In this document: positions 10,392-47,294 of the stretch, piece by piece
Position numbering within the stretch: position 1 is the first letter of the stretch
Layout: every line of letters starts with the position of its first letter
Assembly (NCBI GenBank): GCA_023898525.1
Contig: CP060227.1
Span: forward strand, 823,662 to 887,661
Reading direction: 5' to 3'
Origin: Candidatus Nomurabacteria bacterium
Lineage (GTDB): Bacteria; Patescibacteriota; Minisyncoccia; Phycocordibacterales; UBA918
DNA: 64,000 nt
Notes under the pieces: model-generated
What the model was told of the DNA's origin: nothing
What the model saw: the letters and a program-made list of their open reading frames with translations, nothing else
Databases searched by the model: none
Made by a program: the position numbers and the translations under genes

Positions 10392-10445
10392 GACCTTAAA
10401 GAGGAGCGGCTAGCGACGGGAAAGGTCTACCCTTGGTTGTTTTAC
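10392..10445 (+). repeat. Conserved about 54-nt element, copy 1 (a second copy lies at 29745-29797)
   Basis: gaccttaaagaggagcggctagcgacgggaaaggtctacccttggttgttttac is near-identical to the second locus. It contains a GGAGG-like motif and a 6-7 bp stem. Confidence 0.5.
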
Positions 10446-10567
10446 TTGATTTTAATTAGCATAGGTCCCAGACATGTCATTGCTTTTTAGTAAAAAATGA
10501 TGTATTGTGTTGACTTAAGGCTAATCACGTTAGTCTTTTTAATTTAGAGTACTGGAATAAATACGTA

Positions 10568-10885
10568 GCGGGGTGAGAAAGTGTCAAAACACTTTCGCAA
10601 GACCTTGCCTAGTATTTCTTGAGGCTACGAAAAGAAATACTGACAAGGTGTACAGATCCTGTAAGGATGAGGAGAGGAAACTTTTTCGTTCCAGATAAGG
10701 TAAAAATAAATACATAGCGTGACTAAGAGAGGTATCGAGCGAGAGAATTATATAGCTCTCATAACCTCCCTGGAGAACGCTTTTGTTTGAGGAGAGGTAA
10801 AAATAAATACATAGCGGGGTAGAGGAGAGGTACCTCGGGAGGCTCATAACCTCCAGACCCCGGTTCGATTCCGGGCCCCGCAACA
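10568..10885 (+). ncRNA. tRNA-like / candidate structured RNA locus: three imperfect tandem repeats (R1-R3) ending in a T-arm plus acceptor. tmRNA is an alternative reading, less well supported
   Basis: AATAAATAC(A/G)TAGCG(G/T)G occurs three times (about 10556, 10704, 10802). CTCATAACCTCC occurs twice. The 3' end is CCCCGGTTCGATTCCGGGCCCCGCA. Strong internal hairpins are present. Confidence 0.35.
10815..10882 (+). ncRNA. Degenerate tRNA-like element with a CAU (Met-type) anticodon loop
   Basis: Acceptor GCGGGG/CCCCGC. D-like stem GAGG/CCTC. Anticodon stem GGAGG/CCTCC with loop CTCATAA. T-arm CCCGG-TTCGATT-CCGGG. It is one nt short at positions 8-9 and has a 6-bp acceptor stem. Confidence 0.4.
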
Positions 10886-10936
10886 CTAAGAAAAAACCAA
10901 GAGTATAACTCTTGGTTTTTTCTTAGTGTTGCGGGG
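10876..10936 (+). terminator. Long (about 27-bp stem) hairpin/terminator that overlaps the 3' acceptor strand of the tRNA-like element
   Basis: ccccgcaacactaagaaaaaaccaagagtataactcttggttttttcttagtgttgcgggg is a perfect inverted repeat with an inner T-run. Confidence 0.6.
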
Positions 10937-11040: not shown

Positions 11041-14000
11041 ATGAATTACTCTATTTATAAAAAACCGCAAACAGCTGGATGTGTAAGTAACTCATTTAAT
11101 TTAGCCATTACTAAAAGTGCGAGTTTTGTTCTCGCACTTCTGCTTATATTAGGGTCGTTAGAAAACGTTTCCTTTGCAGCTGTTCTTACTAATGGCGATG
11201 CTGGATATATTACCAACATTCAAACCCGTGATGGAAGTGATCTGTTTAGATCTGATGTACGAGAGGGAAGTGGTGGATTCTTATACGCATATGACATTCC
11301 CGTCCCACCTGGTGTTAACGGCCTCACCCCGCAAATCTCGCTACAGTACAACAGTCAGGGCAGTTCGGACCAAGATATACTTGGCTATGGTTGGAATCTT
11401 TCTATTCCATACATTGAACGGGTGAACAAACACGGCATCAATAAGCTCTTCGACCCCGCCTACGAAACCTTTTACTCCAGTCTTTCTGGTGAGCTTGTAT
11501 TCGATGGGGTAGATTACCTCACAAAAATCAACCAAGGCGACTTCATGAGATATAGCCGATTAAGTAATGGGTGGGTTGTTACTACAAAAGACGGTACCGA
11601 ATATCACTTTGGTTCTGACGTAGTAGCCCAACAGTCAGACCCGACCGATATCACTAACATTTCTCGTTGGTACCTCAGCTCGATTACTGACACTAACGGC
11701 AATATGGTCTCATATTCATACGTTAAAGACACTGGCGCAATTTATCCTAGTACCATCACTTACGGCCCATACACCATCGTGTTCACAACCGAAGCTGCTC
11801 CCACTCACTCGTCCTATAGTCTTGGCTTTAAGGTTGAACGAGATCAGCGTATCAATGCTATTGAAATAAAGGAAAATACCACAATCTTCACTCGACACGA
11901 CCTAACCTACGCTACTGGTATCAATACTCAACGTGACCTTCTGGAGACAATTACTCAAACTGACGTTATCACCAACACTAGCTTACCGGCGGTGATCTTT
12001 GATTACGGCGGCGAAGAAATTCCTCATTGGCAGAGCGACAGTTCGTTTGTATTCCCAGAGCCAATGGGACTTCAAGACAACGGTGTTCGGTTTGGTGACC
12101 TGAATGGTGATGGTCTTACGGATATGATTCGATACGAACGATACTGGAACGACATTCCCTCTGCACGGTGGACAGCTCGTCGTGTACACATCAATAAAGG
12201 CAATGGTAACTGGGATATAGATGTCCCGTGGAGCTGGGATGATATTGAGACACCGTTCTTCTTACACATTAATGATGGTGTATTCAGTAACACCGATAAG
12301 CGTTACGACATGGGCGCGCGCTTAATCGATGTTAACGGAGATGGGCTAGATGACTTCGTCGCTGCTTACAACTGCCTAGACTGGAGTAGTTCAGACTGTT
12401 CAAATGCACCAAACTATATGAAGGAAATTCTAGGTCCAATCCAAATGGATGTCTACCTGAACTCTGGCTCAGGTTTTGTAAAAGACGGCACTAACTGGTT
12501 AAATTTGCAGGCTATGTCTAGTTGGGATTATTCTCCTGCTGATATGACCAATCCAGGCCGAGCATTTGTTGATGTGAATGCTGACGGCTTACCAGACATT
12601 GTTCAATCAGTCGCTACGCTAAACTTCGGCTCGCATCCAAGTGAAAATGTAGCTTCAAATATTTGGATAAACACGGGTAATGATTGGGAACTTTCATCCC
12701 TTACTCTTCCTGCGGCACTTGCCAAATATCCGTGGCACCCTAGTTACCCAAATCTTCGTAAATTCAGTGACTATGGAACTCGATTTGCTGACGTTAACGA
12801 CGATGGGTTAATCGATGTTTTACGAGGATATCGACAGTCATTCAGTGGTAGCGTTAATACGTATACTGACGAAAAAACTGTATACATCAACACTGGTGAT
12901 GGTTGGGAAGAAGACGTGTCTTGGAACTTACCTGTTGAGTTTGTTATTCAAGATCAAACTTCTGGTTATCAGATGTTTGATTTTAACGGTGATAAACTTC
13001 CAGATATTCTTCAATCGCACTACCATAACAATAATGGTTTTAGTTATAATTTATACCTGAACAAAGGTACTACATGGCATCTTGAGAATTACTCAGTGAA
13101 CAGTACTCACTATCCAGTGTATCCTCAGCCACCTTTCCCGCTTACCAGGACAGCCGCTTATACAGGCGGTGGTGGTACGGCTATGATCGATTTTGATGGT
13201 GATAATCTACTTGACGCCTGGAATCTGTATTATCTAGACTTAGATGAAACTCAAAGCTCCGGTGGGAGTGTTTTCCTAAATACTTCAGATATTCCAGACC
13301 TAGTGACCTCAATCATTGATAAAAGCGGTTCCATTACTTCTATCAACTACGACGGCTACCTTGCTACTGTTCAATCAGACTATGTAAAAGTTGGTAACTC
13401 ACCAGTCAATCCGATAGTGGTCACTCATAAAACCATCGATAATAACCACGGTCACACGGTCACTGAAACATATGAGTACAATGATGCTCATCAGTACGTC
13501 GAGGTGAGCGATATTTTTGATCGCAAATTTGCCGGCTTCGGAAAAGTCACCAAAACCACCGATTTAGGAAAAGAAACCACTTACTACCACCAAGGAAACG
13601 GCGTAGCGACTACAACCGAAGAGGGCATAGATGACGAAGCATTAATCGGGCAGGTTTATCGCACAGAAATAACTGATCTTTCTGACAATCTCTATACACT
13701 TTCTCGTCAAAATTTTGCCACCACTTCACTTGGTAACGGCAGTACGTTTGTAAAACTGGAAAGCGGTCTCAAGCTTGATTACGATGGTGATAGCGACAAG
13801 AAAGCTTCGGCCAACAGCTACACCTACGACAACACCAATGGCTCACTCCTTACCAAAACGGAGTGGGGAGAGGTGAGTGGAAATACTGACGGTACTTTCT
13901 CAGATACCGGTACCGACAAGCAAGTGACAACTATTGAGTACGCTACCAATGCGAACGGTATAGTTCTACCATCCAAGCAAACCTTGACCGACAACTCTGA

Positions 14001-17000
14001 CACCAAAGTCCAAGAGTCTCGCTTCTACTACGATAACCAACCGCTTGGCACAGTTACTCTAGGTAACAAGACCAAAGAAGAGAATTGGCTAGGTGGCAGT
14101 AGTTATACAAACAAACAGTGGACATACAACAGCCTAGGGCTGGTAACCGCCGAAACTGATCCAGATGGTAATACCACCAACTATACTTACGATACCTATA
14201 ACTTATATCCAGCTAGTGTCACCAACGCCCTCAATCAAACCACACAGTACGAGTATGACTATTCTTCCGGGCAAGTAGCGACCACCACTGACGCTAATGG
14301 CAATATTTTTGCCACCACTTACGACGGGTTTGGTCGACCGCTTACCGTTACATCACCTGACCCACAGACCGGTACTCCGGTAGTACAGACCGAGTATGTC
14401 TATACCGATACTCCCGGCAGTGTCAGTGTGCAAAAGAAAGATTATCTAAATAGCGGATTAGTTAAAAACTCGTATACTTTCCTAGATGGCTTTGGCCGAA
14501 AGATGCAGGAAAGGCAAGAAGCGGAAGGAATGGATCAATACGTGGTGCGTGATTATGTCTACGGAAGCAATGATCTTTTGGAAAAAGAGTCACTGCCGTA
14601 CTTTGGTACCGGAGCGGCGAGAAGTGCTTCTACCACCAACGCAAACCTCTTAAGCACCTACGCTTACGATCCATTGGCTAGAGTAACAAGCGTAGCAACT
14701 GTGGTTGGTACGACCACTACCGCCTACGACCAATGGAAAGAAACCGTTACCGATACTGCCGGCAATGATAAGGTATTCCAGTATGACGCTTTTGGTCGAT
14801 TGGCAGCCGTGACCGAAAACGAGGGAACCAATTCATACACTACCAACTACACTTGGAATAATCTCGGTAATCTGACCAAGATAACTGACGCCGAAAGTAA
14901 TGTGCGAAATATAAGTTACGACGGACTTGGTCGCCGTACTAGCCTGGAAGATTTGCATGCACCAAGTGATAGTACTTTTGGAACTTGGACTTTTGCTTAT
15001 GACAACGCTGGCAACCTGACCAGCAAGACTAATCCAGAGAGTCAGACTACCAACTACACCTACGACGCTCTTAATCGCCAGTTGACCGAAGACTACACCG
15101 GACAGACTGGTACGGAAATCACTTATACTTATGATACTTGTACGGGTGGCGTGGGGCAACTTTGTACCGCTGCCAATTCTTCCGCTACCACTAACTACAC
15201 CTACACCCCAAACAACCTCTTGGCTTCAGAAGCTAAAACAATAAGTAGCAATACCTACACCACTAGCTATGAGTATGACCGCCAAGGCAACCAAACACTC
15301 ATTACTTATCCAGATAATTCAGAAGTGAAGTACACCTTTAATAAAGGTGGGCAGGTAGACAAAGTGGAACAAAAAGAGGGTGGGGGAACTTTTGCAAACA
15401 TTGTGAGTAATATTGATTATGGACCACATGGTCAGATGGAAAATATCGAATACGGCAATGGCTCTATAACTACTCGTACTTATGATGCGACCGAACTGTA
15501 CCGATTGAAAAATATCCTCACCACTGCCACCAGTACCTATGGCACCGGCGGTCCGGGAGAGGAGCTTATAAGTATTGAAGCCAAACTGGCTTCACTTACC
15601 ACTGAGCTCCCGCTTGCGACTACCAGTGAAGCCTTGGTGGTGGAGACGGTAGAGGAGCCGGTAGAGGAGATGGTCGCAACTTCTTCTGATCTTGCTATCG
15701 AACCGGCTACTTCAGATTCAACTACTGCAACTTCTACTAATATCGAAGCGACAAGTACAAACCAAGAAATAGCCGAAGCCGAACTCACCTCGACTACAAC
15801 CACAACTGATGAGGTGGTGGAGACTAGCGAAATTGCCACCACCACCACGGTCGCTGCTCCAGACGCGACTACCACTGCGTCTTCGTCGTCTGAAACCGCT
15901 ACCGGTACAGCTGACCAAGTGGTGAGTGTGGTAGAAGCTGATGTGGTATTTGATATACCTACCACCACTGCCACCAGTACTTTACCAGCAGTACCAACAG
16001 CTATTGCTTCTACCAGCAGTAACTCCACACCACCAGTTGCGGAAGCGGTGGTAGTTAATCAGGTAGTGGCTAAAAGCAAGCTAAAGCTAAAAATCAACAA
16101 CGCCCACGAAGCCCGAATGTGGCAAAAATACCACCATGAGCGAGTAGCTGGATTAGAAGCAGAGGGAGCTAATCAGGCTGTGCTTGATAAAGCCAAGTAT
16201 GCTCAGGATCAGTTGGAGTCATACTTAATTGAGGATGGTTATCTAAAAGAAAAAGGTGGAAGCGTAAAAGGACACGCTAAAGATTATGTAGAGAGCCAGG
16301 GTAAGAAACTTATAAGCAAAGTGGTGGACTTTATCTTACCGGATACCGTCCAAGCTTACCTATTTGGGTTAGAAGATTTTGAAAATTGTTCAGCTCTTCC
16401 GTGTACCTTTGACAACAATGTATCTTGGGGAGGGGTTACCCCGGCTTTAGATAACACCAGTAAGGTGGCTGGTGCGGATTCACTAAAAGAAACTGTGACT
16501 GGAGAAGGTTCCGGTGGCTTAGAGTTTGTTGATCAAAACACCGGCGAGATTTATGCTCAGTTTAAGGTATTTATTCCGAGTAATATGACTTGGGGACCTT
16601 CCGGTTATCATGGCATTCTTAGATTTGAAGATACGATCAACAACTCAGTTTTCTGGATGAATGTTGAGGATTGGGGCACAGCCAGACTAACCATGATGGG
16701 AGATGTTCTACCGTGGACTGACACCGGAATTGATTTGGTGAAAGGGGCGGTCAACACTATTGAAGTACGCTTTAAGACTGGAGCCACTAACGGCGATGTA
16801 GATATCTGGCTCAACAACACCAACGAAAGTGCACCTGACTACAACGGAAGTGGTACCCTAAACACCGGTACTGATAATGTTGACTATGTAATCGCCGGAG
16901 TTACTTATACTCCCGAAGCGATTAGTACCACCTACTTCGATGATATTGCTATCGACACTACCTTTATTGGTGAGCTAACTTCAGGTGGCCAACCGCCGGT

Positions 17001-18960
17001 GGTGCCATTTGTTGAGAATGTCCAAAACCTTTCCTATACCTACGACACTGTCGGTAATATTACCGAGATAGTAGACAACAGCGGTACCGACTCCGCCGGT
17101 ACCATCACCTACACCTACGACGACCTCTACCGCCTTATCTCAGCTTCCACTACTAATGCTAGTACTACTCCATACCAAGAAACCTATACCTACAACAGTA
17201 TCGGTAACGTCCTCAGCAAGTCTGATGTTGGTACGTATAGTTATGATGGTGGACAGAGTGGAGGAACCAGCTACTACATCTATGACGATAGCATCACTAC
17301 CGGTTGGACAGACTGGTCTTGGTGGACTACCATCAACCCAAGCGCCACCTCTCCTGTCTACTCAGGACTCTATTCATTGGGGTTAGTATACACCCAACCC
17401 TGGGCTGGTATCTCTTATCACAACAACAGTTTCGACAGCTCACCATATGATAATCTAGAGCTGGCGGTTAATGTCGGTACCGACACTACAGCCAATCTCT
17501 ACCTCTATTTCACCAACAGTGCCAGTACACCTTTTACCATCATTAACCTAAAAGACTACGTCACCGGCGGTTTCCAAGCCAACACCTGGCACAGCCTCAC
17601 CATTCCACTTTCAGACTTAGGTTACCAAAACTATCAAGGCGCCACTGAACTAAACATAGAGACCGACCAAGCCGCGACAGTGAATTTTGACAGTATTCGT
17701 TTGACTAGTACCGGCGGAGGAGGAAGCTACGCCAACCCCCACGCTGCCACCACCATCGGCGGCACCACCTACACCTACGACCAAAACGGTAACCTCCTAA
17801 CCGACGGTAATACCACTAACACCTGGAACTACCGCAACGAACTAACTGAGTCCACAAAAGCAGGAATAACGACCAGCTATGGATATGACCACAATGGTGA
17901 TCGAGTGTTCAAGACTACTTCCGAAGGAACGACTTATTATCCTTTCGCTAATTACGAAATTACTGATACTGGTACTACCACAAAGCACATCTACATGGGT
18001 GACCAATTAGTTGCCACGATTGAAGGTTCTGGTGCTGGAGCGTTGACGTATTACAACCATCTTGATCATCTCGGTGGTACCAGTGTGGTAACCGATGGTA
18101 TTGGAGCTATCACCCAAGAATTGGACTACTACCCATTCGGTGATACGAGGATAGATAATGAGTACGGAGACTTTAGACAACATATTCAGCACTCAGGTCA
18201 CCAGAAAGACGATGAAACAGGACTCATCTACCAAGGTGCACGTTACTATAATTCTGGTATCGGACGATATACATCACAAGATCCAGCAAACTTACGAAAT
18301 CCAGCGCAGTTCCTCTATGACCCACAACAGTTAAATACCTATGCGTATGCAAGGAATAATCCACTGAAGTACATTGATCCTACGGGGGAGAAGATTGAGC
18401 TTGTTTCTAGACCAGTAATTTCTTCTTATGATGCACATATGTTCTATCGAGTTACTCCAGATAATCCAGGCCAGATTTCTATTGATGGAATTCCTCAGGG
18501 CACTGAACAGTTTTCGATAGGGGCTTACAACCGAGGTGGTTTCTTAGGTATCGGCAATAAATTGACTCCAGAGTTTAGTTACGAAGGAGGTCCAGTGAAT
18601 ACTGACACCCCATACTTAAACGGGGAAAAGGCGCCTACAGCAAGTGTTGTTATCACACCACCAAACAACATGTCAGATACAGAGTTTATTAACAGTCTTG
18701 GTGCTTCAGCAAATAGTATCGACAAGACAGGTTATTATATGTTTGGTAAAACTGGTAAATTTGGTGTAGCTAATTCAAATAACTTCGTATACGAAGTTGG
18801 TAATAGGAGTGGTGTTGGTAATCAGGTCAGCTCGTTCAATTCAGGTGCATATACTCCAGGACAGAGTCAAGGAATCCCAACTGCAACATTGCTTGATAAT
18901 ATAAGGTCTAGCCTGAACAGTATTAAGGAGAGATTGTCCAAAAAAGATGATAGCGAATAA
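11041..18960 (+). CDS. Giant secreted polymorphic-toxin protein (2639 aa): signal peptide, SpvB/TcB-like N-terminal domain, FG-GAP-like repeats, RHS/YD repeats, S/T-rich linker plus LamG/CBM-like insert, Rhs core, variable C-terminal toxin domain
   Basis: Signal peptide ASFVLALLLILGS. DxNGDGxxD repeats (FGDLNGDGLTDM, IDVNGDGLDDF, VDVNADGLPDIV...). Many YD repeats (YTYDALNRQ, YEYDRQGNQ, YTYDTVGNI). Rhs core GARYYNSGIGRYTSQDP...NTYAYARNNPLKYIDPTGE, followed by about 200 unique residues. Confidence 0.85.
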   Translation: MNYSIYKKPQTAGCVSNSFNLAITKSASFVLALLLILGSLENVSFAAVLTNGDAGYITNIQTRDGSDLFRSDVREGSGGFLYAYDIPVPPGVNGLTPQISLQYNSQGSSDQDILGYGWNLSIPYIERVNKHGINKLFDPAYETFYSSLSGELVFDGVDYLTKINQGDFMRYSRLSNGWVVTTKDGTEYHFGSDVVAQQSDPTDITNISRWYLSSITDTNGNMVSYSYVKDTGAIYPSTITYGPYTIVFTTEAAPTHSSYSLGFKVERDQRINAIEIKENTTIFTRHDLTYATGINTQRDLLETITQTDVITNTSLPAVIFDYGGEEIPHWQSDSSFVFPEPMGLQDNGVRFGDLNGDGLTDMIRYERYWNDIPSARWTARRVHINKGNGNWDIDVPWSWDDIETPFFLHINDGVFSNTDKRYDMGARLIDVNGDGLDDFVAAYNCLDWSSSDCSNAPNYMKEILGPIQMDVYLNSGSGFVKDGTNWLNLQAMSSWDYSPADMTNPGRAFVDVNADGLPDIVQSVATLNFGSHPSENVASNIWINTGNDWELSSLTLPAALAKYPWHPSYPNLRKFSDYGTRFADVNDDGLIDVLRGYRQSFSGSVNTYTDEKTVYINTGDGWEEDVSWNLPVEFVIQDQTSGYQMFDFNGDKLPDILQSHYHNNNGFSYNLYLNKGTTWHLENYSVNSTHYPVYPQPPFPLTRTAAYTGGGGTAMIDFDGDNLLDAWNLYYLDLDETQSSGGSVFLNTSDIPDLVTSIIDKSGSITSINYDGYLATVQSDYVKVGNSPVNPIVVTHKTIDNNHGHTVTETYEYNDAHQYVEVSDIFDRKFAGFGKVTKTTDLGKETTYYHQGNGVATTTEEGIDDEALIGQVYRTEITDLSDNLYTLSRQNFATTSLGNGSTFVKLESGLKLDYDGDSDKKASANSYTYDNTNGSLLTKTEWGEVSGNTDGTFSDTGTDKQVTTIEYATNANGIVLPSKQTLTDNSDTKVQESRFYYDNQPLGTVTLGNKTKEENWLGGSSYTNKQWTYNSLGLVTAETDPDGNTTNYTYDTYNLYPASVTNALNQTTQYEYDYSSGQVATTTDANGNIFATTYDGFGRPLTVTSPDPQTGTPVVQTEYVYTDTPGSVSVQKKDYLNSGLVKNSYTFLDGFGRKMQERQEAEGMDQYVVRDYVYGSNDLLEKESLPYFGTGAARSASTTNANLLSTYAYDPLARVTSVATVVGTTTTAYDQWKETVTDTAGNDKVFQYDAFGRLAAVTENEGTNSYTTNYTWNNLGNLTKITDAESNVRNISYDGLGRRTSLEDLHAPSDSTFGTWTFAYDNAGNLTSKTNPESQTTNYTYDALNRQLTEDYTGQTGTEITYTYDTCTGGVGQLCTAANSSATTNYTYTPNNLLASEAKTISSNTYTTSYEYDRQGNQTLITYPDNSEVKYTFNKGGQVDKVEQKEGGGTFANIVSNIDYGPHGQMENIEYGNGSITTRTYDATELYRLKNILTTATSTYGTGGPGEELISIEAKLASLTTELPLATTSEALVVETVEEPVEEMVATSSDLAIEPATSDSTTATSTNIEATSTNQEIAEAELTSTTTTTDEVVETSEIATTTTVAAPDATTTASSSSETATGTADQVVSVVEADVVFDIPTTTATSTLPAVPTAIASTSSNSTPPVAEAVVVNQVVAKSKLKLKINNAHEARMWQKYHHERVAGLEAEGANQAVLDKAKYAQDQLESYLIEDGYLKEKGGSVKGHAKDYVESQGKKLISKVVDFILPDTVQAYLFGLEDFENCSALPCTFDNNVSWGGVTPALDNTSKVAGADSLKETVTGEGSGGLEFVDQNTGEIYAQFKVFIPSNMTWGPSGYHGILRFEDTINNSVFWMNVEDWGTARLTMMGDVLPWTDTGIDLVKGAVNTIEVRFKTGATNGDVDIWLNNTNESAPDYNGSGTLNTGTDNVDYVIAGVTYTPEAISTTYFDDIAIDTTFIGELTSGGQPPVVPFVENVQNLSYTYDTVGNITEIVDNSGTDSAGTITYTYDDLYRLISASTTNASTTPYQETYTYNSIGNVLSKSDVGTYSYDGGQSGGTSYYIYDDSITTGWTDWSWWTTINPSATSPVYSGLYSLGLVYTQPWAGISYHNNSFDSSPYDNLELAVNVGTDTTANLYLYFTNSASTPFTIINLKDYVTGGFQANTWHSLTIPLSDLGYQNYQGATELNIETDQAATVNFDSIRLTSTGGGGSYANPHAATTIGGTTYTYDQNGNLLTDGNTTNTWNYRNELTESTKAGITTSYGYDHNGDRVFKTTSEGTTYYPFANYEITDTGTTTKHIYMGDQLVATIEGSGAGALTYYNHLDHLGGTSVVTDGIGAITQELDYYPFGDTRIDNEYGDFRQHIQHSGHQKDDETGLIYQGARYYNSGIGRYTSQDPANLRNPAQFLYDPQQLNTYAYARNNPLKYIDPTGEKIELVSRPVISSYDAHMFYRVTPDNPGQISIDGIPQGTEQFSIGAYNRGGFLGIGNKLTPEFSYEGGPVNTDTPYLNGEKAPTASVVITPPNNMSDTEFINSLGASANSIDKTGYYMFGKTGKFGVANSNNFVYEVGNRSGVGNQVSSFNSGAYTPGQSQGIPTATLLDNIRSSLNSIKERLSKKDDSE

Positions 18961-19440: not shown

Positions 19441-20200
19441 GGGGTCAGCCACCATTTATGATAAAATAAATGAATGCCAAGAATAAAAAGAGTAGATGTT
19501 GGTGGTGAAGTATATCACGTACTAAATCGTGCTAATGCTCGAGTGCAGATATTTGATAACAAAAAAGATTATCAGCAATTTGAAGAAATACTTGAAGAGG
19601 CTATTGAAAAATACGAAGTACCATTACTGGCATATTGTGTTATGCCAAATCACTGGCATATGGTACTGCAACCAAAACAAGATGGTGATATGCAGAAATT
19701 TATTGGGTGGCTTTCTAATACGCATACTCGTAGGTGGCATGTTACAAAAGATACAATAGGTCAAGGTCATCTATATCAGGGTCGATACAAATCATTTATT
19801 TGCGAACAAGACCATCACCTACTTACAGTTCTTAGATACGTTGAACGAAACGCTAAAAAAGCAAATTTAGTCAAAAAGGCTGAAGACTGGCAATGGTCAA
19901 GTGTATGGAGAAGAGAAAATGGTACTTTAGAACAAAAGAAAATATTAAGTAACTGGCCTATATCTATACCAAGAGACTATTTAAATCTTCTTAATAAACC
20001 TATGAATGAGTCTGAAGAAGAGGCTTTAGAAAAATCAGAAGAAAGAAGTATACCTTTTGGAGAAGAGGAGTGGGTTAATAGAAAAGTTAAAAAGTATGAG
20101 ATTGAACAAGTGTTACGGGGAGTAGGTAGACCTAAAAATGGTGGCTGACCCCATTTCTGACCCCATTTCCCCATTTCCACCATTTCCATTTCCGGAAAGG
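19441..20200 (+). mobile_element. REPtron-like unit: rayT gene flanked by inverted REP-like repeats, plus a CCATTTC tandem array
   Basis: GGGGTCAGCCACC at 19441-19453 and its exact reverse complement GGTGGCTGACCCC at 20140-20152. Then CCCCATTTC-type units repeat 5 times (20149-20200). Confidence 0.6.
19474..20148 (+). CDS. rayT: REP-associated tyrosine transposase RayT (Y1 HUH transposase, IS200-like fold) with a C-terminal extension
   Basis: YHVLNRAN. HUH motif PNHWHMV. GHLYQGRYKS. RYVERNAKKANLV...WQWSS. Confidence 0.8.
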   Translation: MPRIKRVDVGGEVYHVLNRANARVQIFDNKKDYQQFEEILEEAIEKYEVPLLAYCVMPNHWHMVLQPKQDGDMQKFIGWLSNTHTRRWHVTKDTIGQGHLYQGRYKSFICEQDHHLLTVLRYVERNAKKANLVKKAEDWQWSSVWRRENGTLEQKKILSNWPISIPRDYLNLLNKPMNESEEEALEKSEERSIPFGEEEWVNRKVKKYEIEQVLRGVGRPKNGG

Positions 20201-29744: not shown

Positions 29745-29797
29745 GACCTTAAGGAGGAGCTTGTGACGGAAAAGGTTGTTCCTTGGTTATTGTTTTA
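29745..29797 (+). repeat. Conserved about 54-nt element, copy 2 (copy 1 lies at 10392-10445)
   Basis: gaccttaaggaggagcttgtgacggaaaaggttgttccttggttattgtttta. Confidence 0.5.
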
Positions 29798-29909: not shown

Positions 29910-29931
29910 TGCCGGATCGTCTAATGGTAAG
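29910..29931 (+). other. Partial duplicate of the 5' 22 nt of tRNA-Gln
   Basis: TGCCGGATCGTCTAATGGTAAG versus the tRNA 5' end TGCCAGATCGTCTAATGGTAGG. Confidence 0.5.
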
Positions 29932-29997
29932 CAGAGCTTTCTTTCATCATTCGCTCGGACACAGAAGAGGTATTTTGTACAAATTTATATTCACCGC

Positions 29998-30068
29998 TGC
30001 CAGATCGTCTAATGGTAGGACTCCAGGTTTTGGTCCTGGCTATCTAGGTTCGAGTCCTAGTCTGGCAG
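29998..30068 (+). tRNA. tRNA-Gln (anticodon TTG)
   Basis: TGCCAGA-TC-GTCT-AATGGTA-GGAC-T-CCAGG-TTTTGGT-CCTGG-CTAT-CTAGG-TTCGAGT-CCTAG-TCTGGCA-G. U1-A72 and G73 are Gln-type. Confidence 0.8.
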
Positions 30069-30125
30069 CGGTGGATGGAAATACAAAATACCTCTTTTGT
30101 GTCTCTCGCTCATTCGAAAGTAGGT

Positions 30126-30304
30126 AAAACAATCTGGGAGATTGTTTTACGGGTTTTGCACCACAAGGGTATTTCTATTTTAATAGTCGTTTCACTCATT
30201 TAAAATAAGTCCACCACAAGGGTATTTCTATTTTCATGGTCGCTATCGCTTTCTGAAAATTAGGTCGTCCATGGTATTTAGGCTGAGACAGTCTGGGAGA
30301 CTGT
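30126..30304 (+). repeat. Structured repeat region downstream of tRNA-Gln: two 31-nt direct repeats plus twin CTGGGAG-loop hairpins
   Basis: DR CACCACAAGGGTATTTCTATTTT(A/C)AT(A/G)GTCG at 30159-30189 and 30212-30242. Hairpins AAAACAATCTGGGAGATTGTTTT (30126-30148) and ACAGTCTGGGAGACTGT (30288-30304), with an A-T to G-C change that keeps the stem paired. Confidence 0.5.
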
Positions 30305-30418
30305 TGAAGAAGGTTGTCTAGTATTTTATGACAAAAAAAGGAAATAAAATACTGACAAACCAGTCTGTACTGATGCTGTAAGGATCGGGTCTTATTCAGA
30401 CAGTCAATTAGTGATAGT

Positions 30419-31877: not shown

Positions 31878-32420
31878 CCCGCATGCTTGTCATCGGGGGA
31901 AACATTGTCATACTAAACAGTAATGAAAGGTAAACCACAACATATCAAAAAACCACACAACAAAACTCTGTTCATCTATCATCTGGTATGCCCAGTAAAA
32001 TACAGAAGAGATGTATTTACACCACCAATATCAAAAACATTTAAAAACTTATGTTTGGAATTTGGTCCAGCTTACGAGATATACTTTCTTGAAATAGGAA
32101 TAGACGAAGATCATGTACACTTTTTAATACAAACAATTCCAAACATACGTTTCTCTGATACGGTAAAGAAAATAAAAAGCATCACCTCCAATCATCTCTT
32201 TAAAATCCACCCTGAACTAAAAATAAAACTCTGGGGAGGAAAGTTCTGGACTGAAGGTTATTATGCAAATACAGTGGGTAATGCCAGTATGGATATTATT
32301 ACCAATTACGTTAAAAACCAAGGTTATCCCGAATACCAACAGCTACACTCCGCACCAGTTCAGACTTCACTGTTTACTACCTAGTCCAACGCCGATACCC
32401 CGTATGCTTGTCATCGGGGT
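31878..32420 (+). mobile_element. IS200/IS605-family insertion sequence (543 bp) with subterminal hairpins, inserted 3' of TTAC
   Basis: Left hairpin CCCCGCATGCTTGTCATCGGGG (31877-31898). Right hairpin CCCCGTATGCTTGTCATCGGGG (32398-32419). It carries a Y1 tnpA gene. The flanking sequence is ...CTTTAC|. Confidence 0.7.
31923..32384 (+). CDS. IS200/IS605 family transposase TnpA (Y1 HUH)
   Basis: HUH motif DHVHFLIQ. Catalytic Tyr region GYYANTVG. 153 aa. Confidence 0.85.
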   Translation: MKGKPQHIKKPHNKTLFIYHLVCPVKYRRDVFTPPISKTFKNLCLEFGPAYEIYFLEIGIDEDHVHFLIQTIPNIRFSDTVKKIKSITSNHLFKIHPELKIKLWGGKFWTEGYYANTVGNASMDIITNYVKNQGYPEYQQLHSAPVQTSLFTT

Positions 32421-42530: not shown

Positions 42531-44372
42531 ATGAAAATAATAAAATTACTGTTTGACAGAGAACATTGGGTGGAGATCGCAGCGATAGTGGTGGTAGGTT
42601 TGGCTAGTTTACTTTTTTCTCTGGAGATCATATCAATACCAATTTTGGTAGCGGCTATTTTGCTCGGTGCTTACCCAATTGCTAAGGAAGCTCTTCTAGA
42701 CCTGTTTACTAAGAAAAAAATTGGCACCGAGTTATTTATTACGGTAGCGGTGGCGGTCGCTCTCTTGGGTGGGGAGTATCTGGCTGGGGCTGTGGTCTTG
42801 ATGATTATTTTGATCGCTGAATACATTGCTAGTGTTTCGGGAGAAAGAGCTAGGGCGTCAATCCGTGACTTAATTGGTACAGTACCAAAAACCGCTATTA
42901 TTAAATGTGGTGACAAACAACTGACAGTTGACTTAGCTTCGATAAAAATTGACGACATAGTTTTGGTAAGGGCTGGCGATAAGATACCGGTTGATGGGGT
43001 GGTGGTGGCTGGTAACGGGTTTGCTAATCAAGCACCGATTACCGGTGAGAGTTTACCGCAGGGTAAGATGGTTGGTAGCGATGTTTATGCTGGTACCATA
43101 TTGGAGTCTGGCGCTCTTGATATCAGAGTCACTAAGCTAACGGAAGACACGGTTTTCTCGAGAATCATTGCTCTGGTTGAGGAGGCGGAAAGTCGGGAGC
43201 CGTTGATTCAGAAGTTTACTGATCGGGTAGCGACTTGGTTGATTCCAATCGCCTTTGTATTTGTGGCGGTGGTCTATTATTACACTCAAGATATAAAGTT
43301 GATTATCGCGCTGTTGATCTTTACTTCTCCGGCTGAGCTTGGACTAGCTACACCTTTGGTGACTATATCGGCGGTGGCCAGAGCGGCGCGCGAGGGTATA
43401 TTAGTAAAAGGTGGCTTGTATCTTGAAGCTTTGGCTCGGGCTGACACTTTCGTATTTGATAAAACTGGTACTTTGACACTGGGGGACTTGAAGGTAGATA
43501 AGATTCGGGTGTTTGACCGAAATTTTGATGAAAGGGAGGTATTGTCTATTGCTGCAGCGGCCGATAGTCGGTCTGGTCATCCTTTGGCCAAGACTATTGT
43601 TGAGTACGCTAAGGAGATAAATGTTTCGCATATTGCACCGACTGAGTTCGCGGTTTTGGATGGTCGAGGCGTAAAAGCAACTGTTGGCGGTAAACAGGTT
43701 TTGGTTGGAAATGTGACTTTAATGCATGAGAATTCTGTAGATCTGCCGAGTGACGTTAAAATTACTGATGACACGACTGTCTACGTGGCAATGGAGGGTA
43801 AATTGGTCGGGGCTATTTTAATTAGTAGTATTGTCAGGCCGGGAGCAAGAGCGGCTATCCAATCATTAAAAGCTGGCGGGGTGAAAAAAGTGATGATGCT
43901 AACCGGAGACAATGAGGAAGCGGCTAAGAAGATAGCCTCTCAACTAGCGATTGATGAGGTAAGAGCTGATTTATTACCGGAAGATAAAATTAAGATCGTA
44001 GACCAATTGCAGTCCGAAGGTCGGCTGGTAGCGATGGTGGGTGACGGTGTCAATGACGCACCGGCGCTAGCGGCTGCTAGTGTGGGGGTGGCTATGGGTT
44101 CAGTCGGGACCGGGTCAGCGATGGAGGCCGCCGATATAGTCTTAGTAAATGATGATCTGGAGAAACTGGCTCACGCTCGAGCAATCAGTAGCCGGGCTTA
44201 TAAAACAATTCGAGAAAACATTTTTGTTGGAGTTGGAGTGGTGCATGTGGTGGGAATTATTCTGGTTTTAACTCATGTGATCGGTCCGATTCAGGCGGCA
44301 ATTATTCACTTGGTGCCTGATACTTTAGTGTTTTTGAATTCTATTAAGTTACTGAAAGTTAAAATTTACTAA
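42531..44372 (+). CDS. P1B-type heavy-metal P-type ATPase with variant TM6 motif SPA (no N-terminal metal-binding domain)
   Basis: DKTGTLT, GDGVNDAPAL and TGES motifs. TM6 reads FTSPAELGLATP instead of CPC. Confidence 0.75.
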   Translation: MKIIKLLFDREHWVEIAAIVVVGLASLLFSLEIISIPILVAAILLGAYPIAKEALLDLFTKKKIGTELFITVAVAVALLGGEYLAGAVVLMIILIAEYIASVSGERARASIRDLIGTVPKTAIIKCGDKQLTVDLASIKIDDIVLVRAGDKIPVDGVVVAGNGFANQAPITGESLPQGKMVGSDVYAGTILESGALDIRVTKLTEDTVFSRIIALVEEAESREPLIQKFTDRVATWLIPIAFVFVAVVYYYTQDIKLIIALLIFTSPAELGLATPLVTISAVARAAREGILVKGGLYLEALARADTFVFDKTGTLTLGDLKVDKIRVFDRNFDEREVLSIAAAADSRSGHPLAKTIVEYAKEINVSHIAPTEFAVLDGRGVKATVGGKQVLVGNVTLMHENSVDLPSDVKITDDTTVYVAMEGKLVGAILISSIVRPGARAAIQSLKAGGVKKVMMLTGDNEEAAKKIASQLAIDEVRADLLPEDKIKIVDQLQSEGRLVAMVGDGVNDAPALAAASVGVAMGSVGTGSAMEAADIVLVNDDLEKLAHARAISSRAYKTIRENIFVGVGVVHVVGIILVLTHVIGPIQAAIIHLVPDTLVFLNSIKLLKVKIY

Positions 44373-45284: not shown

Positions 45285-47294
45285 ATGGAGCACGTACATC
45301 ATAGCGGGCATGGACATGGTTCTGGAACGGGTCATGGTTCTGCCGAGATTTTTTTGAAACGATTTTGGGTCGTAACTTTTTTGTTGATTCCACTGGTGTT
45401 CGCTAACCAGATGGTAATGCAGGCAGTAGGGCTTCAGGCTCATACTCTAAGTAAGTGGTTTGGTTTTTTTATTGCGACGGTGATATTTGGCTTTGCCTTA
45501 GTTTTTTTTGAACACGCTTGGCACGAGATAAAGGCTAAGCAGTACGGCATGATGACGTTGGTGTCGCTGGCGGTGGGAGCTGGGTATTTATTTTCGGTAG
45601 TGGCGACTTTTGTGTCAACACTTGAGGCTGATTTTTATTTAGAAATATCAACGCTTATTTGGGTGCTGATGTTTGGTCACTACCTGGAAGCCAGGTCGGG
45701 AGCGGCGGCGGGTAATGCTTTGTCAGAAGTAGCGAAGCTTCTGCCTAAAAAGGCGCATCGTTTGATTGGTGATAGAGAGGAGGAGATTGAGATAAGTGAG
45801 CTCAAGGTTGATGATTTGGTCCTGGTAAAACCGGGTGAAAAAATTCCAGCTGACGGTGTGGTTTCGTTGGGTGTAGCAAATGTTAACGAAGCTCTAATTA
45901 GTGGTGAGTCAAAGCCGTTGTCAAAAAAGGCTGGAGACGAAGTGGTGGCTGGGTCTATTTGTCTTGATGGTTCTTTAACTATCCGTCTAACTAGGGTCGG
46001 TGAACATTCAACTATCGGTCAGATTAAAAATTTGATCGCTAAGGCAGAAATGACTAAGCCTAAGTCACAACGGCTGGCCGACAAAGCGGCGGCAATTTTG
46101 ACCGCGGTGGCGGCTATTACTGCACTTTTGACTGTTTTGGTGTGGTCGCTAATTTTAGGTGAGACTTTTGTTTTCTCAATTACACTCGCTATTACAGTTT
46201 TGGTGATTGCGTGTCCACATGCGCTTGGGTTGGCGATACCAACAGTCACTACCATAACCACCTCAATTGCAATTAAAAGCGGCTTTTTTATCAAAAATCT
46301 AGCCAAGCTAGAAGTACTGAAAAAGGTCAACTATGTTGTGTTTGATAAGACGGGTACTCTAACGACTGGAGAATTTGGTGTAAATGAAGTGGTGGCGGTT
46401 GGTGACGAAGTTGAAGCTAATGTATTAGCAGTAGCGGCATCGTTAGAACAACATTCATCGCATATTATCGGTCAGTCAATAGTAGCAGATGCAAAAAATA
46501 AGAACTTGCAGCTTCATCAAATTTTGAATTTCAAAAATATCGCCGGTAAGGGTGTACAAGCTGAGATAGATGAGGAGATATACGTGGTCGGTAACGTGGC
46601 TATGATGGAATCTTTTGGCGTCGAAATTGAAACTGTGAAAGAAAAATATATAGAATTATCGAGCAAAGGTAAGACGGTGGTGTTTGTGGCTAAACAAAAA
46701 AAGATAATCGGTCTTATCGTCTTGTCTGACGCTATTAAAAAAGAAGCTTTTCTGGCGGTTGAACGTTTACACGGTTTGGGTGTGAAGGTGGCTATGTTGA
46801 CTGGCGATAATCAAGCGGTAGCCAAAGCCGTAGCTGAAGAGTTAAAAATTGATACGTACTTCGCCGAAGTTTTGCCGGAAGATAAATACCAGCATATTAA
46901 GTCTCTGCAAGAAAGAGGTGGAGTAGTGGTGATGGTGGGTGATGGTGTAAACGACGCTCCGGCTTTGACTCAGTCTGATGTCGGAGTGGCAATCGGCGCT
47001 GGGACAGATGTGGCGGTGGAGGCTGGAGATGTGGTGTTGACCCGCAACAATCCGGAGGATGTGGCTCGACTCATAATCTTGGCCAAAAAAGTTTATGTAA
47101 AAATGGTACAGAATTTAGTGTGGGCACTTGGTTACAATATCATTGCTATTCCAGCGGCGGCTGGTGTGTTCGCTAGTCAATTTTTCTTTGGCGGTTTTCT
47201 TTTAAGACCGGAAATCGGTGCTTTAATAATGAGTCTCTCGACAGTAATAGTTGTAGCTAATGCTCTATTGTTGAAGCGAGTCAATCTTAAGTAG
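45285..47294 (+). CDS. CopB-type (P1B-3) copper-transporting P-type ATPase with a His-rich N-terminus
   Basis: N-terminus MEHVHHSGHGHGSGTGHGS. CPH motif in TM6 (IACPHALGLAIP). DKTGTLT. GDGVNDAPAL. Confidence 0.8.
   Translation: MEHVHHSGHGHGSGTGHGSAEIFLKRFWVVTFLLIPLVFANQMVMQAVGLQAHTLSKWFGFFIATVIFGFALVFFEHAWHEIKAKQYGMMTLVSLAVGAGYLFSVVATFVSTLEADFYLEISTLIWVLMFGHYLEARSGAAAGNALSEVAKLLPKKAHRLIGDREEEIEISELKVDDLVLVKPGEKIPADGVVSLGVANVNEALISGESKPLSKKAGDEVVAGSICLDGSLTIRLTRVGEHSTIGQIKNLIAKAEMTKPKSQRLADKAAAILTAVAAITALLTVLVWSLILGETFVFSITLAITVLVIACPHALGLAIPTVTTITTSIAIKSGFFIKNLAKLEVLKKVNYVVFDKTGTLTTGEFGVNEVVAVGDEVEANVLAVAASLEQHSSHIIGQSIVADAKNKNLQLHQILNFKNIAGKGVQAEIDEEIYVVGNVAMMESFGVEIETVKEKYIELSSKGKTVVFVAKQKKIIGLIVLSDAIKKEAFLAVERLHGLGVKVAMLTGDNQAVAKAVAEELKIDTYFAEVLPEDKYQHIKSLQERGGVVVMVGDGVNDAPALTQSDVGVAIGAGTDVAVEAGDVVLTRNNPEDVARLIILAKKVYVKMVQNLVWALGYNIIAIPAAAGVFASQFFFGGFLLRPEIGALIMSLSTVIVVANALLLKRVNLK

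Follow-up and report, generated by a model that had tools for sequence, protein, structure and literature searches.

Two short blocks in a 64,000-nt stretch of the Candidatus Nomurabacteria bacterium genome (hereafter the window) are best explained as members of a new tRNA-linked structured RNA family, in which a mimic of the tRNA top half is combined with a conserved three-way-junction core of unknown function; we place the probability of this reading at roughly 0.55. Its members are found in Patescibacteria-type (CPR) bacteria, immediately 3' of tRNA or tmRNA genes and in the same orientation; the family is new in that it has no match in Rfam 15, in viral collections or in the literature searched. 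Patescibacteria form a very large, mostly uncultured share of the bacteria, with tiny genomes and an RNA biology that is little known. Both window blocks are somewhat decayed copies of this widespread structured element, retaining the helices Pa, Pb, Pc and Pd without the tRNA-mimic arms. Locus 1 belongs to a variant designated type B; locus 2 represents another variant, type C, in decayed form.

The first-pass annotation of the window had described a hairpin block shared by the two loci, with 10-bp stems, two double compensatory changes and common flanks, and each of these was found at the positions it gave. By direct reading, AGTATTTCTT (10611-10620) is fully complementary to AAGAAATACT (10632-10641) at locus 1, as is AGTATTTTAT (30320-30329) to ATAAAATACT (30344-30353) at locus 2. 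Between the loci, positions 8 and 9 of this stem, Pc, are changed on both arms (C-G to U-A and U-A to A-U), and both stems remain paired at 10/10 positions despite the changes. The flank TACTGACAA occupies 10638-10646 and 30350-30358, and CTGTAAGGAT occupies 10659-10668 and 30376-30385. The annotated hairpin block is real but covers only part of the unit, the start of which lies ~35 nt further upstream. Similarly, CTGTAAGGAT is shared as described but is not single-stranded; it supplies the loop and the 3' strand of Pd (GATCC-TGTAA-GGATC), a fourth hairpin. The shared block contains four helices, and compensatory changes are also present in Pa (AAGTGT/ACACTT at locus 1 and CAGTCT/AGACTG at locus 2) and in Pb (ACCTTG/CAAGGT and GGTTG/CAA(A)CC, respectively). 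Pc, the hairpin noticed originally, is the helix least conserved in sequence; the conserved nucleotides are those of the junctions and Pd. A second block shared by the window loci upstream of the element ("block A") was not found in any related locus.

All features mapped at the two loci are on the forward (+) strand. At locus 1, a 15-nt direct repeat of family D13, AATAAATAC[G/A]TAGCG, was read directly, with its left copy at 10559-10569; it comprises the leader of tRNA-Met and the initial 4 nt of the tRNA itself. Copies at 10559 and 10707-10719 flank the element, and a third precedes the real tRNA-Met. The 5' closing strand AGCGGGGTGAG (10567-10577) fits the type B consensus ..GGGTGAG, and its motif also occurs in type B members L047, L061, L062, L064, L066, L071, L087, L106, L115 and L141. 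The Pa hairpin GAAAGTGT-CAAA-ACACTTTC (10577-10596) was identified by direct reading and in the MFE fold; a hairpin of at least 6 bp is found at this position in 104 of 117 family members. The Pb 5' strand ACCTTG (10602-10607), supported by model alignment and by family-wide Pb covariation, pairs with the 3' strand CAAGGT (10644-10649; direct reading, model alignment). They enclose Pc (10610-10642), a 10-bp stem with a U-G closing pair and an 11-nt loop, for which reading, MFE fold, model alignment and covariation agree. The junction GTACA (10650-10654) follows, its UAC being near-invariant in the consensus of pattern-independent family copies, and then Pd, GATCC-TGTAA-GGATG (10655-10669; reading, model alignment), which has lost its outermost pair (G-G). 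An extra 3' hairpin, GGAAAC..GTTCC (10676-10692; reading, MFE fold), stands in the place of the type B variable hairpin. The sequence GCGTGAC (10717-10723) is a candidate 3' closing strand by comparison with the type B consensus YGUGACC, a tentative assignment for so short a motif. An intact tRNA-Met (CAT) lies beside the element at 10813-10884 (ARAGORN; Rfam, 57.3 bits).

The locus-2 element lies downstream of an intact tRNA-Gln (TTG; 29998-30069; ARAGORN, Rfam). Its Pa hairpin, CTGAGACAGTCTGGGAGACTGTTGAAG (30283-30309; reading, MFE fold), carries a GGG triloop, the most frequent Pa loop of the family, and is near-identical to the Pa of L022, L029, L031, L034 and L091. The Pb 5' strand GGTTG (30312-30316), the Pc hairpin with the second 10-bp stem and a 14-nt loop (30319-30354), and the Pb 3' strand CAAACC with one bulged A (30356-30361) were each assigned by reading and model alignment, and Pc by the MFE fold as well. 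A 5-nt insertion at 30362-30366, absent from other members, separates Pb from the junction GTACT and the Pd hairpin GATGC-TGTAA-GGATC, which has one G-G mismatch (30367-30386; reading, model alignment).

Exact 10- and 11-mers of the blocks occur at just these two sites within the window. A covariance model trained on 30 sequences, all from other organisms and none from the window, scored the two loci at 53.1 bits (E 3e-13) and 27.6 bits (E 9e-6), and nothing in the rest of the window rose above generic terminator hairpins (maximum 16.6 bits). As the 10- and 11-mers are unique to both sites and an independent model matches exactly both, the similarity of the two loci is beyond chance. Only two copies are present in 64 kb and short ORFs overlap them, as might be expected of a chance similarity, a decaying simple duplication in this genome or part of a protein-coding gene. 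We consider this reading already refuted by the independent model matches and the family covariation: hundreds of covarying homologs exist elsewhere, and the loops and linkers vary in length between copies by non-multiples of three, indicating that the block is non-coding. The earlier proposal of a selected structure rather than repeat decay is supported by all three checks suggested with it, namely homologs, covariation and tRNA adjacency. At least 126 loci were collected from Patescibacteria-type MAGs and metagenomes, far exceeding the two copies that would have counted against it, and no conserved protein-coding ORF accounts for the block; both-sided changes were present in 25 of the 26 modelled pairs (669 cells); and cores with a tRNA within 300 nt were on its strand in 100 cases versus 0 on the opposite strand.

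The conserved core, ~95 nt in size, is a three-way junction of a closing helix P1, a long arm formed by Pb and Pc, and the short hairpin Pd, with Pa as an extra hairpin upstream; MFE folds reproduce the tRNA-mimic helix P0 as well as Pa, P1, Pb/Pc and Pd. The Pd loop is a GUA triloop with a covarying closing pair (U-A or C-G), and the near-invariant nucleotides are those of the junctions, namely CGAA, UACUG and the GA after Pd. Of all positions, unpaired junction nucleotides are conserved best. Across 123 distinct copies, 90% of pair cells were paired, versus 66% when shuffled and 30-51% when slid, and the covariation score was 0.507 vs 0.141. About 100 of the 125 aligned copies were retrieved by an exact 19-base pattern in Pd, and thus the sequence conservation of Pd is overstated in the full alignment. 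In the 26 copies lacking the search pattern, the Pd stem varies freely and is fully compensated, the loop exchanging U..A for C..G (consensus of the pattern-independent copies, Y-GUA-R). Copies sharing one contig have a median identity of 59% and differ by 187 compensatory vs 9 one-sided changes. The predicted fold is strongly supported by compensatory mutations in the sequence comparison. An RNA reading is supported by a strand bias in well-paired columns (G-U 41 vs A-C 19) and by the multi-branch architecture, but there are no expression data, and RNA rather than single-stranded DNA as the folded molecule has not been shown. Template switching in quasi-palindromic DNA is a process that could also yield compensatory changes without RNA selection where a hairpin is simple.

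A pattern scan of genomes returned 15 matches, of which 6 were true homologs, all in Patescibacteria-type or unclassified MAGs; the corresponding scan of metagenomes gave at least 120 loci, and 170 covariance-model matches lie within the loci. The Hainich 0.1-um groundwater fractions are the source of several loci. Several elements can occur on one contig, and tandem arrays were seen in L110, L130 and L148. Searches of IMG/VR viral contigs with two patterns gave 16 chance matches without the hairpin and then 0, and in phage genome records tRNAs alone matched, not elements. Exact-match searches with proteins of the window turned up a single short Logan contig, which carries the CTP synthase gene and gives no taxonomy, and testing for the cyanobacterial HIP1 site gave 0 sites. 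With Rfam 15, the only match to the window blocks up to E = 10 was HTH-XRE, on the opposite strand and at 14.6 bits vs a cutoff of 49.8. No element was matched up to E = 0.1 in 20 loci with complete members, where the Rfam matches were to the adjacent tRNAs and tmRNAs plus two weak sub-threshold ones (Plastid-ycf2 on the tRNA in L043 and tmRNA_permuted at the tmRNA 3' end in L084). Literature searches with the Pd string as DNA and as RNA returned no paper, and those on Patescibacteria tRNA-like or structured RNAs returned only group I introns and TIGR-Tas, neither of which fits. Since the element duplicates the 3' end of the tRNA beside it and is absent from Rfam 15, it is a strong candidate for a functional RNA class that is new and connected with tRNA biology.

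In view of these Rfam results, it is very improbable that the element is a fragment or divergent member of a described RNA such as a group I intron, the tRNA-like domain of tmRNA, a small ribozyme like the hammerhead, or a TIGR guide of the box C/D-like kind. Patescibacteria are rich in group I introns of tRNA genes, which lie in the anticodon loop, e.g., at 35/36, self-splice and have a catalytic core recognised by intron models (PMC13011429), but the element is found at T-loop position 54/55 or downstream of the gene, its core is too small for a group I intron, and no group I match was obtained. An intron of the T-loop that splices to a working tRNA was rejected for type C copies, as their 3' parts cannot pair with the 5' body and no complete tRNA would result. 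The hammerhead is a three-way junction with CUGANGA, GAA and UH core strands in canonical order. CUGA-like strings do occur in the element; however, its junction strands are CGAA, UACUG and GA, with no equivalent of G8/A9, and the hammerhead core cannot be mapped onto it. The hammerhead was rejected because the strand order does not fit and because the position that follows CUG varies and is part of a Pd base pair. Guide arrays of the TIGR or box C/D-like type (PMC12045711) were also rejected, there being no box C and no conserved CUGA; no Nop-domain gene was seen among the neighbour clusters, which were inspected without a Pfam scan.

ARAGORN and Rfam (RF00005) call five true tRNAs in the window and neither block. 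tmRNA combines a tRNA-like domain with a tag-peptide reading frame and pseudoknots and is encoded by one gene per genome. The order of parts in its tRNA-like domain (RF00023) is similar to that of the element (acceptor strand, GGAWTCGA, long helix, GUAC, short hairpin, acceptor strand): the 5' and 3' ends of the element pair into an acceptor-like stem, a GGAUUCGA-type string after the 5' strand leads into a long helix replacing the anticodon arm, and a short hairpin precedes a 3' acceptor strand made of T-arm and acceptor sequence. tmRNA genes are themselves trailed by the element, and in L065 a 137-nt tmRNA-like RNA lies ahead of two elements. Unlike tmRNA, the element has no tag reading frame and no pseudoknots, its extra helix P1 pairs T-loop-derived nucleotides, and it is present in numerous copies per genome, several per contig, each matching a different tRNA; the Rfam tmRNA model matches the genuine neighbouring tmRNAs and not the elements. 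GOLLD and ROOL are large orphan structured RNAs of 500-800 nt, mostly from prophages of Firmicutes and relatives. They share with the element strong covariation, conservation, an unknown function and frequent proximity to tRNA genes, but they are not known to copy a tRNA 3' end, and the element has no Rfam match.

A tRNA was present within 300 nt upstream in 63 of 98 loci, representing 16 different isotypes, and a core was found 3' of 74 of the 172 tRNA/tmRNA genes in the fetched loci, including tmRNA genes in L084, L062 and L076. This trailing rate of ~40% is biased upward, as the loci were selected for holding an element. In complete members, the 3' arm duplicates the sequence of the neighbouring tRNA between T-loop position 55 and the 3' terminus, and the 5' arm is complementary to that sequence; in their MFE folds the arms form an acceptor-stem and T-stem style helix with the core at the place of the T-loop. 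Exact or near-exact sense copies of the tRNA 3' end were present in 22-24 of 60 cases, antisense copies in 30/60 and both arms jointly in 10/60. GGA|TCGA invariably marks the right boundary, at T-loop position 54/55, and the copied tRNA 3' end sometimes takes in the terminator too, as in L037. Own 5' and 3' flanks paired better than swapped ones (median -25.1 vs -19.4 kcal/mol, p = 2e-10). Copies linked to tRNA-Glu are present in more than one lineage, their arms matching the sequence of the local tRNA each time. Type C members have a real tRNA 5' body as their 5' arm, and their core lies upstream of an intact tRNA. Roughly half of the members, both window copies included, have lost their arms or retain them in decayed form, suggesting that the tRNA mimic is perhaps non-essential. 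An intrinsic-terminator-like hairpin usually lies between tRNA and element, which argues against simple co-transcription. Tandem arrays, direct repeats of tRNA 3' ends and the fixed T-loop junction have the look of DNA-level insertion or duplication.

The arms could also belong to a cis-acting switch for 3'-end maturation or read-through of the tRNA/tmRNA, in which the antisense arm would have two alternative partners, the upstream tRNA 3' end, where it would extend the terminator hairpin, and the decoy copy downstream. One of these states would be stabilised by the core, or the core would sense a factor, and the element would thereby control folding, 3' processing or termination of its own tRNA/tmRNA. 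In favour of such a switch, the same 15-22 nt occur three times in the order sense, antisense, sense, and tRNA end, terminator and antisense arm form long perfect palindromes (~35 bp in L021, ~33 bp in L025). A 30-bp palindrome is also present at the window tRNA-Met, taking in the last 9 nt of the tRNA. In L074 and L055, moreover, the antisense arm still matches the tRNA and the downstream sense copy has decayed. We nevertheless regard a cis-acting switch as improbable: no tRNA is within reach in ~30% of loci, the tandem array of L110 has no tRNA at all, both window copies lack arms, the core precedes an intact tRNA in type C, and both arms are present in so few of the cases.

If the blocks instead belong to a new tRNA-linked RNA family, the element would be transcribed on the tRNA strand, through read-through or a duplicated tRNA promoter. 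Locus 1 fits the second route, since the 15-nt leader of tRNA-Met also stands in front of it. Excision of the element would fall to RNase P and RNase Z, an inference from the resemblance of the arms to a tRNA top half for which there are no processing data. Once freed, the element may act as a small RNA in its own right, its invariant junction and triloop binding a partner as yet unknown. YrlA (bacterial Y-RNA-like), the MALAT1 mascRNA and the plant dicistronic tRNA-snoRNA genes are tRNA-mimicking or tRNA-linked modules processed by tRNA enzymes. In these, as in the element, which lies on the same strand near a tRNA gene, a non-tRNA RNA is tRNA-linked or tRNA-shaped, so that RNase P or RNase Z can define its ends. 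Their mimics are fixed in sequence, whereas the arms of the element copy its own neighbouring tRNA, and the element has a conserved three-way junction in place of the T-loop. This anatomy predicts cleavage by RNase P and RNase Z at the ends of the element, a partner of the invariant junction that is either protein or RNA, and a strand-exchange switch with the tRNA 3' end. It is possible, though we suggest it only tentatively, that in many Patescibacteria individual tRNA/tmRNA genes have a cognate "shadow" RNA with antisense and sense arms of the tRNA's own 3' end and the T-loop replaced by the three-way-junction domain. If so, shadow RNAs would be a new class of tRNA-specific partner RNAs, which could be processed, CCA-tailed and even charged like their tRNAs, or alternatively could pair with the tRNA 3' end and control its maturation or quality control; an RNA would then do this task in organisms of minimal protein repertoire. 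For annotation, the element accounts for tRNA fragments and "tRNA-like" stretches near tRNA genes in these genomes.

The main rival to a new RNA family, though we think it unlikely, is a DNA-level one: a miniature non-autonomous mobile element or integrative remnant that targets the T-loop of tRNA/tmRNA genes. The hairpins would then be recombination structures of single-stranded DNA, like those of integron attC sites or IS200/IS605 ends, and the arms would be duplicated targets or att-site repeats. Partial tRNA genes are known to arise when elements integrate (PMC9897764). As at the att sites of integrative elements, the 3' part of an intact tRNA or tmRNA gene recurs some distance downstream as a direct repeat that begins in the T-loop. 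The element also has a fixed boundary followed by an exact tRNA 3'-end copy from T-loop position 55 in the 22-24 of 60 cases above, uses tmRNA as well as tRNA genes as integrases do, and shows identical tandem units in L130, L148 and L073 and a direct repeat bracketing locus 1. However, its interval is ~100-150 nt, non-coding and without an integrase gene, and is a deeply diverged, covarying structure that opens with the tRNA end in antisense. Each tRNA has a 5' arm specific to it, which a fixed mobile sequence cannot supply, the arms of the recurrent tRNA-Glu-linked copies follow the local tRNA, conservation is highest in unpaired junction nucleotides, and viral contigs gave no matches. Near-identical recent copies were not found either; the ~59% identity and 187 compensatory changes between same-contig copies indicate old paralogs under structural constraint rather than recent insertions. 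Were the DNA-level explanation right, an unusual structure-conserving element targeting the T-loop of any tRNA-like gene would likewise be of interest.

Integron attC sites, IS200/IS605 ends and REP hairpins resemble the element in keeping a fold while the sequence varies, in being strand-specific and in being able to form arrays, and Y1 transposase genes are present in the window. The element differs in being multi-branched, with invariant junction nucleotides and no R-box or GTAG-type signatures. REPs are short, high-copy intergenic palindromes that flank a RAYT gene; REP and RAYT were rejected on the two copies per 64 kb and the absence of homologs of the window Y1 proteins from 125 related loci. 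A RAYT-like ORF at 19474-20148 is 9 kb away and scores 69.8 bits, under the NCBIfam cutoff of 80. IS200/IS605 ends or a TnpB omega-RNA were likewise rejected, as no transposase cluster lies near 160 copies (TnpB was not profile-searched); the IS200 tnpA at 31923-32384 is separated from locus 2 by 1.5 kb that contain two unrelated ORFs. In an all-against-all BLAST of 1358 ORFs from the ~720 kb around the 160 copies, no transposase or integrase family was enriched. A separate search for homologs of the window Y1 proteins found no Y1 gene in that sequence. The top neighbour clusters appeared housekeeping-like by eye, without a family-library scan, and two of them resemble LAGLIDADG-type ORFs.

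The two 10-bp stems on which the first-pass annotation based its claim of a selected RNA structure were read directly from the sequence and pair perfectly: AGTATTTCTT (10611-10620) with AAGAAATACT (10632-10641) in the copy near tRNA-Met (locus 1), and AGTATTTTAT (30320-30329) with ATAAAATACT (30344-30353) in the copy near tRNA-Gln (locus 2), with two positions changed on both arms between the loci. The strings TACTGACAA and CTGTAAGGAT do follow the stem in both loci, and neither exact string occurs at a third site in the window; CTGTAAGGAT, however, had been described as a mere flank and is instead the loop and 3' arm of a further helix, Pd (GATCC-TGTAA-GGATC). By hand alignment, with MFE folds in support, the common unit exceeds the annotated block and contains four helices in both loci: Pa, a hairpin upstream (GAAAGTGT/ACACTTTC in locus 1, ACAGTCT/AGACTGT in locus 2); Pb, which encloses the annotated hairpin (ACCTTG/CAAGGT and GGTTG/CAA(A)CC, respectively); Pc, which is that hairpin; and Pd. 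Read by eye, Pa, Pb and Pc each carry two double compensatory changes between the loci.

Neither window block matched Rfam 15 at up to E = 10, and phage records returned matches to tRNAs only. Scanning one genome per GTDB species for the pattern yielded 15 matches, six of them with the complete architecture; by record title, four of the six belong to Patescibacteria-type lineages (Patescibacteria group UBA661, Kaiserbacteria, Paceibacteria and Parcubacteria OLB19), and the remaining pair are MAGs labelled "uncultured bacterium", without classification. The most conserved string among these six genome homologs, GTACNGATCCTGTAAGGATC, was found at no fewer than 120 loci in metagenome contigs and had no match in viral contigs. 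The block is a member of a widespread element, of which no description was found in Rfam 15, the literature (by string and keyword) or phage and viral collections, though an earlier description elsewhere is not excluded.

A covariance model, R1, was built from 30 metagenome copies, none from the window, with the structure checked by hand. With filters off, R1 recovered only the two blocks from the window, at 53.1 bits (E 3e-13) and 27.6 bits (E 9e-6); its remaining scores there were no better than terminator-like hairpins, and its alignment to locus 1 was local only (model positions 10-80). In the loci listed it found 125 + 45 copies, several per contig, and the search pattern is absent from about 26 of them. 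Across 123 distinct rows from these loci, standard pairs fill 90% of pair cells, compared with 66% when shuffled and 30-51% when partners were slid; two-sided changes affect 25 of 26 pairs (669 cells), with a covariation score of 0.507 versus 0.141. Although fitting the alignment to the model favours the structure, both control values, slid and shuffled, fall far below the observed one. The pattern-free copies have many Pd stem sequences with perfect compensation (GGUCA/UGACC, GAACA/UGUUC, GCUUC/GAAGC and others), and their first and last Pd loop bases covary from U..A to C..G, leaving the GUA triloop invariant. P1, the closing helix of the three-way-junction core, also covaries (TCGAA..GATCGA versus TTGAA..GATCAA). 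Copies on the same contig share a median identity of 59% and show 187 compensatory changes versus 9 one-sided ones. In well-paired columns G-U outnumbers A-C (41 versus 19), which favours folding of the tRNA-sense strand. Conserved nucleotides comprise CGAA (P1 to Pb), UACUG (Pb to Pd), GUA, and GA past Pd. Template switching in quasi-palindromes could generate some hairpin "compensations" without selection, but leaves the conserved junction nucleotides unexplained. These data demonstrate a conserved, covarying and strand-specific multi-helix fold, and the original inference of selected structure is upheld.

Several known identities were rejected for the element: tRNA and tmRNA by Rfam searches, a group I intron by Rfam and comparison with PMC13011429, a hammerhead by Rfam and the conserved junction nucleotides, and a box C/D-type guide by comparison with PMC12045711. 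Coding sequence was ruled out, as the copies differ by insertions and deletions whose lengths are not divisible by three.

Among the listed loci with enough flank, 63 of 98 have a tRNA within 300 nt upstream, always on the same strand, drawn from 16 isotypes and usually ending 100-140 nt before GTAC. A family HMM places a core within 160 nt downstream on the same strand of 74 of the 172 tRNA/tmRNA genes in the loci listed; of the cores that have a tRNA within 300 nt, 100 are on the tRNA strand and 0 on the opposite strand. At three loci (L084, L062 and L076) the element follows a tmRNA gene. The element is demonstrably linked, tightly and in the same orientation, to genes whose RNA products have tRNA-like 3' ends. 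In the window, locus 1 precedes tRNA-Met by 150 nt and locus 2 follows tRNA-Gln by 215 nt, with partial tRNA copies at both (repeat families D13 and D14).

Two metagenome loci have unusual arrangements. L065 encodes a 137-nt tmRNA-like RNA (7-143) followed by two elements; its tmRNA-like tRNA domain and helix 2 are complete with just 49 nt between them, and its score of 46.8 bits falls slightly short of the Rfam cutoff for tmRNA (47). A minimal tmRNA, or one in two pieces, is a possible identity. In L110 (1-700), a bidirectional terminator marks the point where two tandem arrays converge; the arrays are built of 146-nt and 162-nt units, hold five cores in all and have no tRNA nearby, and their neighbouring units show compensatory changes in Pd. 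L148 is similar.

The flanking arms are demonstrably derived from the 3' end of the neighbouring tRNA. The sequence past Pd reads GGA and then TCGA, after which 22-24 of 60 cases in the loci listed repeat the upstream tRNA in sense, exactly or nearly so, beginning at T-loop position 55 and running through to its end; some of these copies also take in the start of the trailer or even the terminator. The final 9 nt of the tRNA recur in antisense between tRNA and core in 30 of the 60 cases. Pairing of 5' and 3' flanks is stronger for own than for mismatched partners (median -25.1 versus -19.4 kcal/mol, p = 2e-10). In MFE folds of complete members, the outer helix P0 and P1 form a long closing helix equivalent to acceptor stem plus T stem, Pa branches at the tRNA-body exit, and the core takes the place of the T-loop. 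Type A members have this P0 + P1 helix with sense and antisense tRNA-end arms; type B, which includes locus 1, has additional helices and the motifs GGGTGAG and GTGACC; in type C, a tRNA 5' body (Gln or Arg-CCU) runs directly into Pa and the core, and an intact tRNA of that kind follows immediately downstream. Locus 2 represents type C in decayed form, and both window copies lack the tRNA-mimic arms.

It is conceivable, though unlikely, that these features mark a DNA-level element or integration scar directed at the T-loop. The fixed junction position, direct repeats, tandem arrays and use of tmRNA genes are consistent with this, as are partial tRNA genes, a known outcome of element integration (PMC9897764). 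Deep divergence with compensation, antisense arms specific to each tRNA, conserved unpaired bases and the lack of any recombinase count against it. A tie to a transposase or integrase was rejected: clustering of 1358 neighbouring ORFs revealed mostly housekeeping-looking families (named by eye from sequence only, without a family-library scan), and 720 kb of related loci contained no homologs of the window Y1 proteins. Still more doubtful is a cis-acting switch whose antisense arm would pair by turns with the tRNA 3' end and with its decoy copy, as arrays without tRNAs (L110) and armless copies exist.

We favour, with a probability of roughly 0.55 and by inference without expression data, an element transcribed as RNA from the tRNA strand. 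Its arms would imitate the tRNA top half and so permit excision by RNase P and RNase Z, while the invariant junction and triloop would bind a partner of unknown identity. The same 15-nt leader precedes both the locus 1 element and tRNA-Met, suggesting that a duplicated tRNA-Met promoter may drive locus 1. Against an RNA, a terminator-like hairpin usually lies between tRNA and element, and the arms are dispensable in many copies.

The leader, AATAAATAC[A/G]TAGCG, occurs three times (10559-10569, 10707-10719 and 10803-10816), and two copies bracket the locus 1 element. Between that element and the real tRNA-Met lies a decayed tRNA-Met copy (approximately 10716-10790; 5' two-thirds, CTCATAACCTCC kept). 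The tRNA-Met terminator (10865-10927) forms a 30-bp palindrome without mismatches, and the final 9 nt of the tRNA belong to its left arm; this design of tRNA end, terminator and antisense copy recurs in L021 and L025. A 22-bp inverted repeat with one mismatch (29958-29979 / 30082-30103) brackets tRNA-Gln and would enclose the entire tRNA in a long stem, and 88 nt upstream is a 20-nt copy of the tRNA-Gln 5' end that matches at 19 of 20 positions (29910-29929). A lone Pa-like hairpin, GTAAAACAATCTGGGAGATTGTTTTAC, with the GGG triloop typical of the family, lies 55 nt past tRNA-Gln (30124-30150). Between tRNA-Gln and the locus 2 element are two units in tandem, each about 53 nt long (CACCACAAGGGTATTTCTATTTT.AT.GTCG...; 30159-30189 and 30212-30242); their motif also lies immediately 5' of cores in two metagenome loci (L092 369-387, L138 188-206), so these units may be a further module of the system. 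A second sequence common to both window loci, block A (10392-10444 and 29745-29797; GACCTTAArGAGGAGC..GACGGrAAAGGT..CCTTGGTT.TTGTTTTA), starts about 40 nt past the stop codon of the upstream ORF and has a possible GACCTT/AAGGTC stem, then an alternative CCTTGG segment; it matches no Rfam family and is missing from all 151 fetched loci.

The window is a segment of bacterial chromosome, with five tRNAs, Pfam matches to NAD-dependent DNA ligase, an amidase-family protein, CTP synthase and an FtsX-like permease, and no cyanobacterial HIP1 octamer. It encodes two Y1 transposases, one RAYT-like (19474-20148; 69.8 bits, below the NCBIfam cutoff of 80) and one IS200-type (31923-32384); the relationship between the two proteins is remote, and neither is linked to the element. 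A 2639-aa ORF (11041-18960) has repeated Y-T-Y-D-type motifs of the YD/Rhs kind. Two long neighbouring ORFs (42531-44372 and 45285-47294), which have in common DNA segments of 79% identity about 2.9 kb apart (repeat families D9 and D12), appear to be tandem paralogs.
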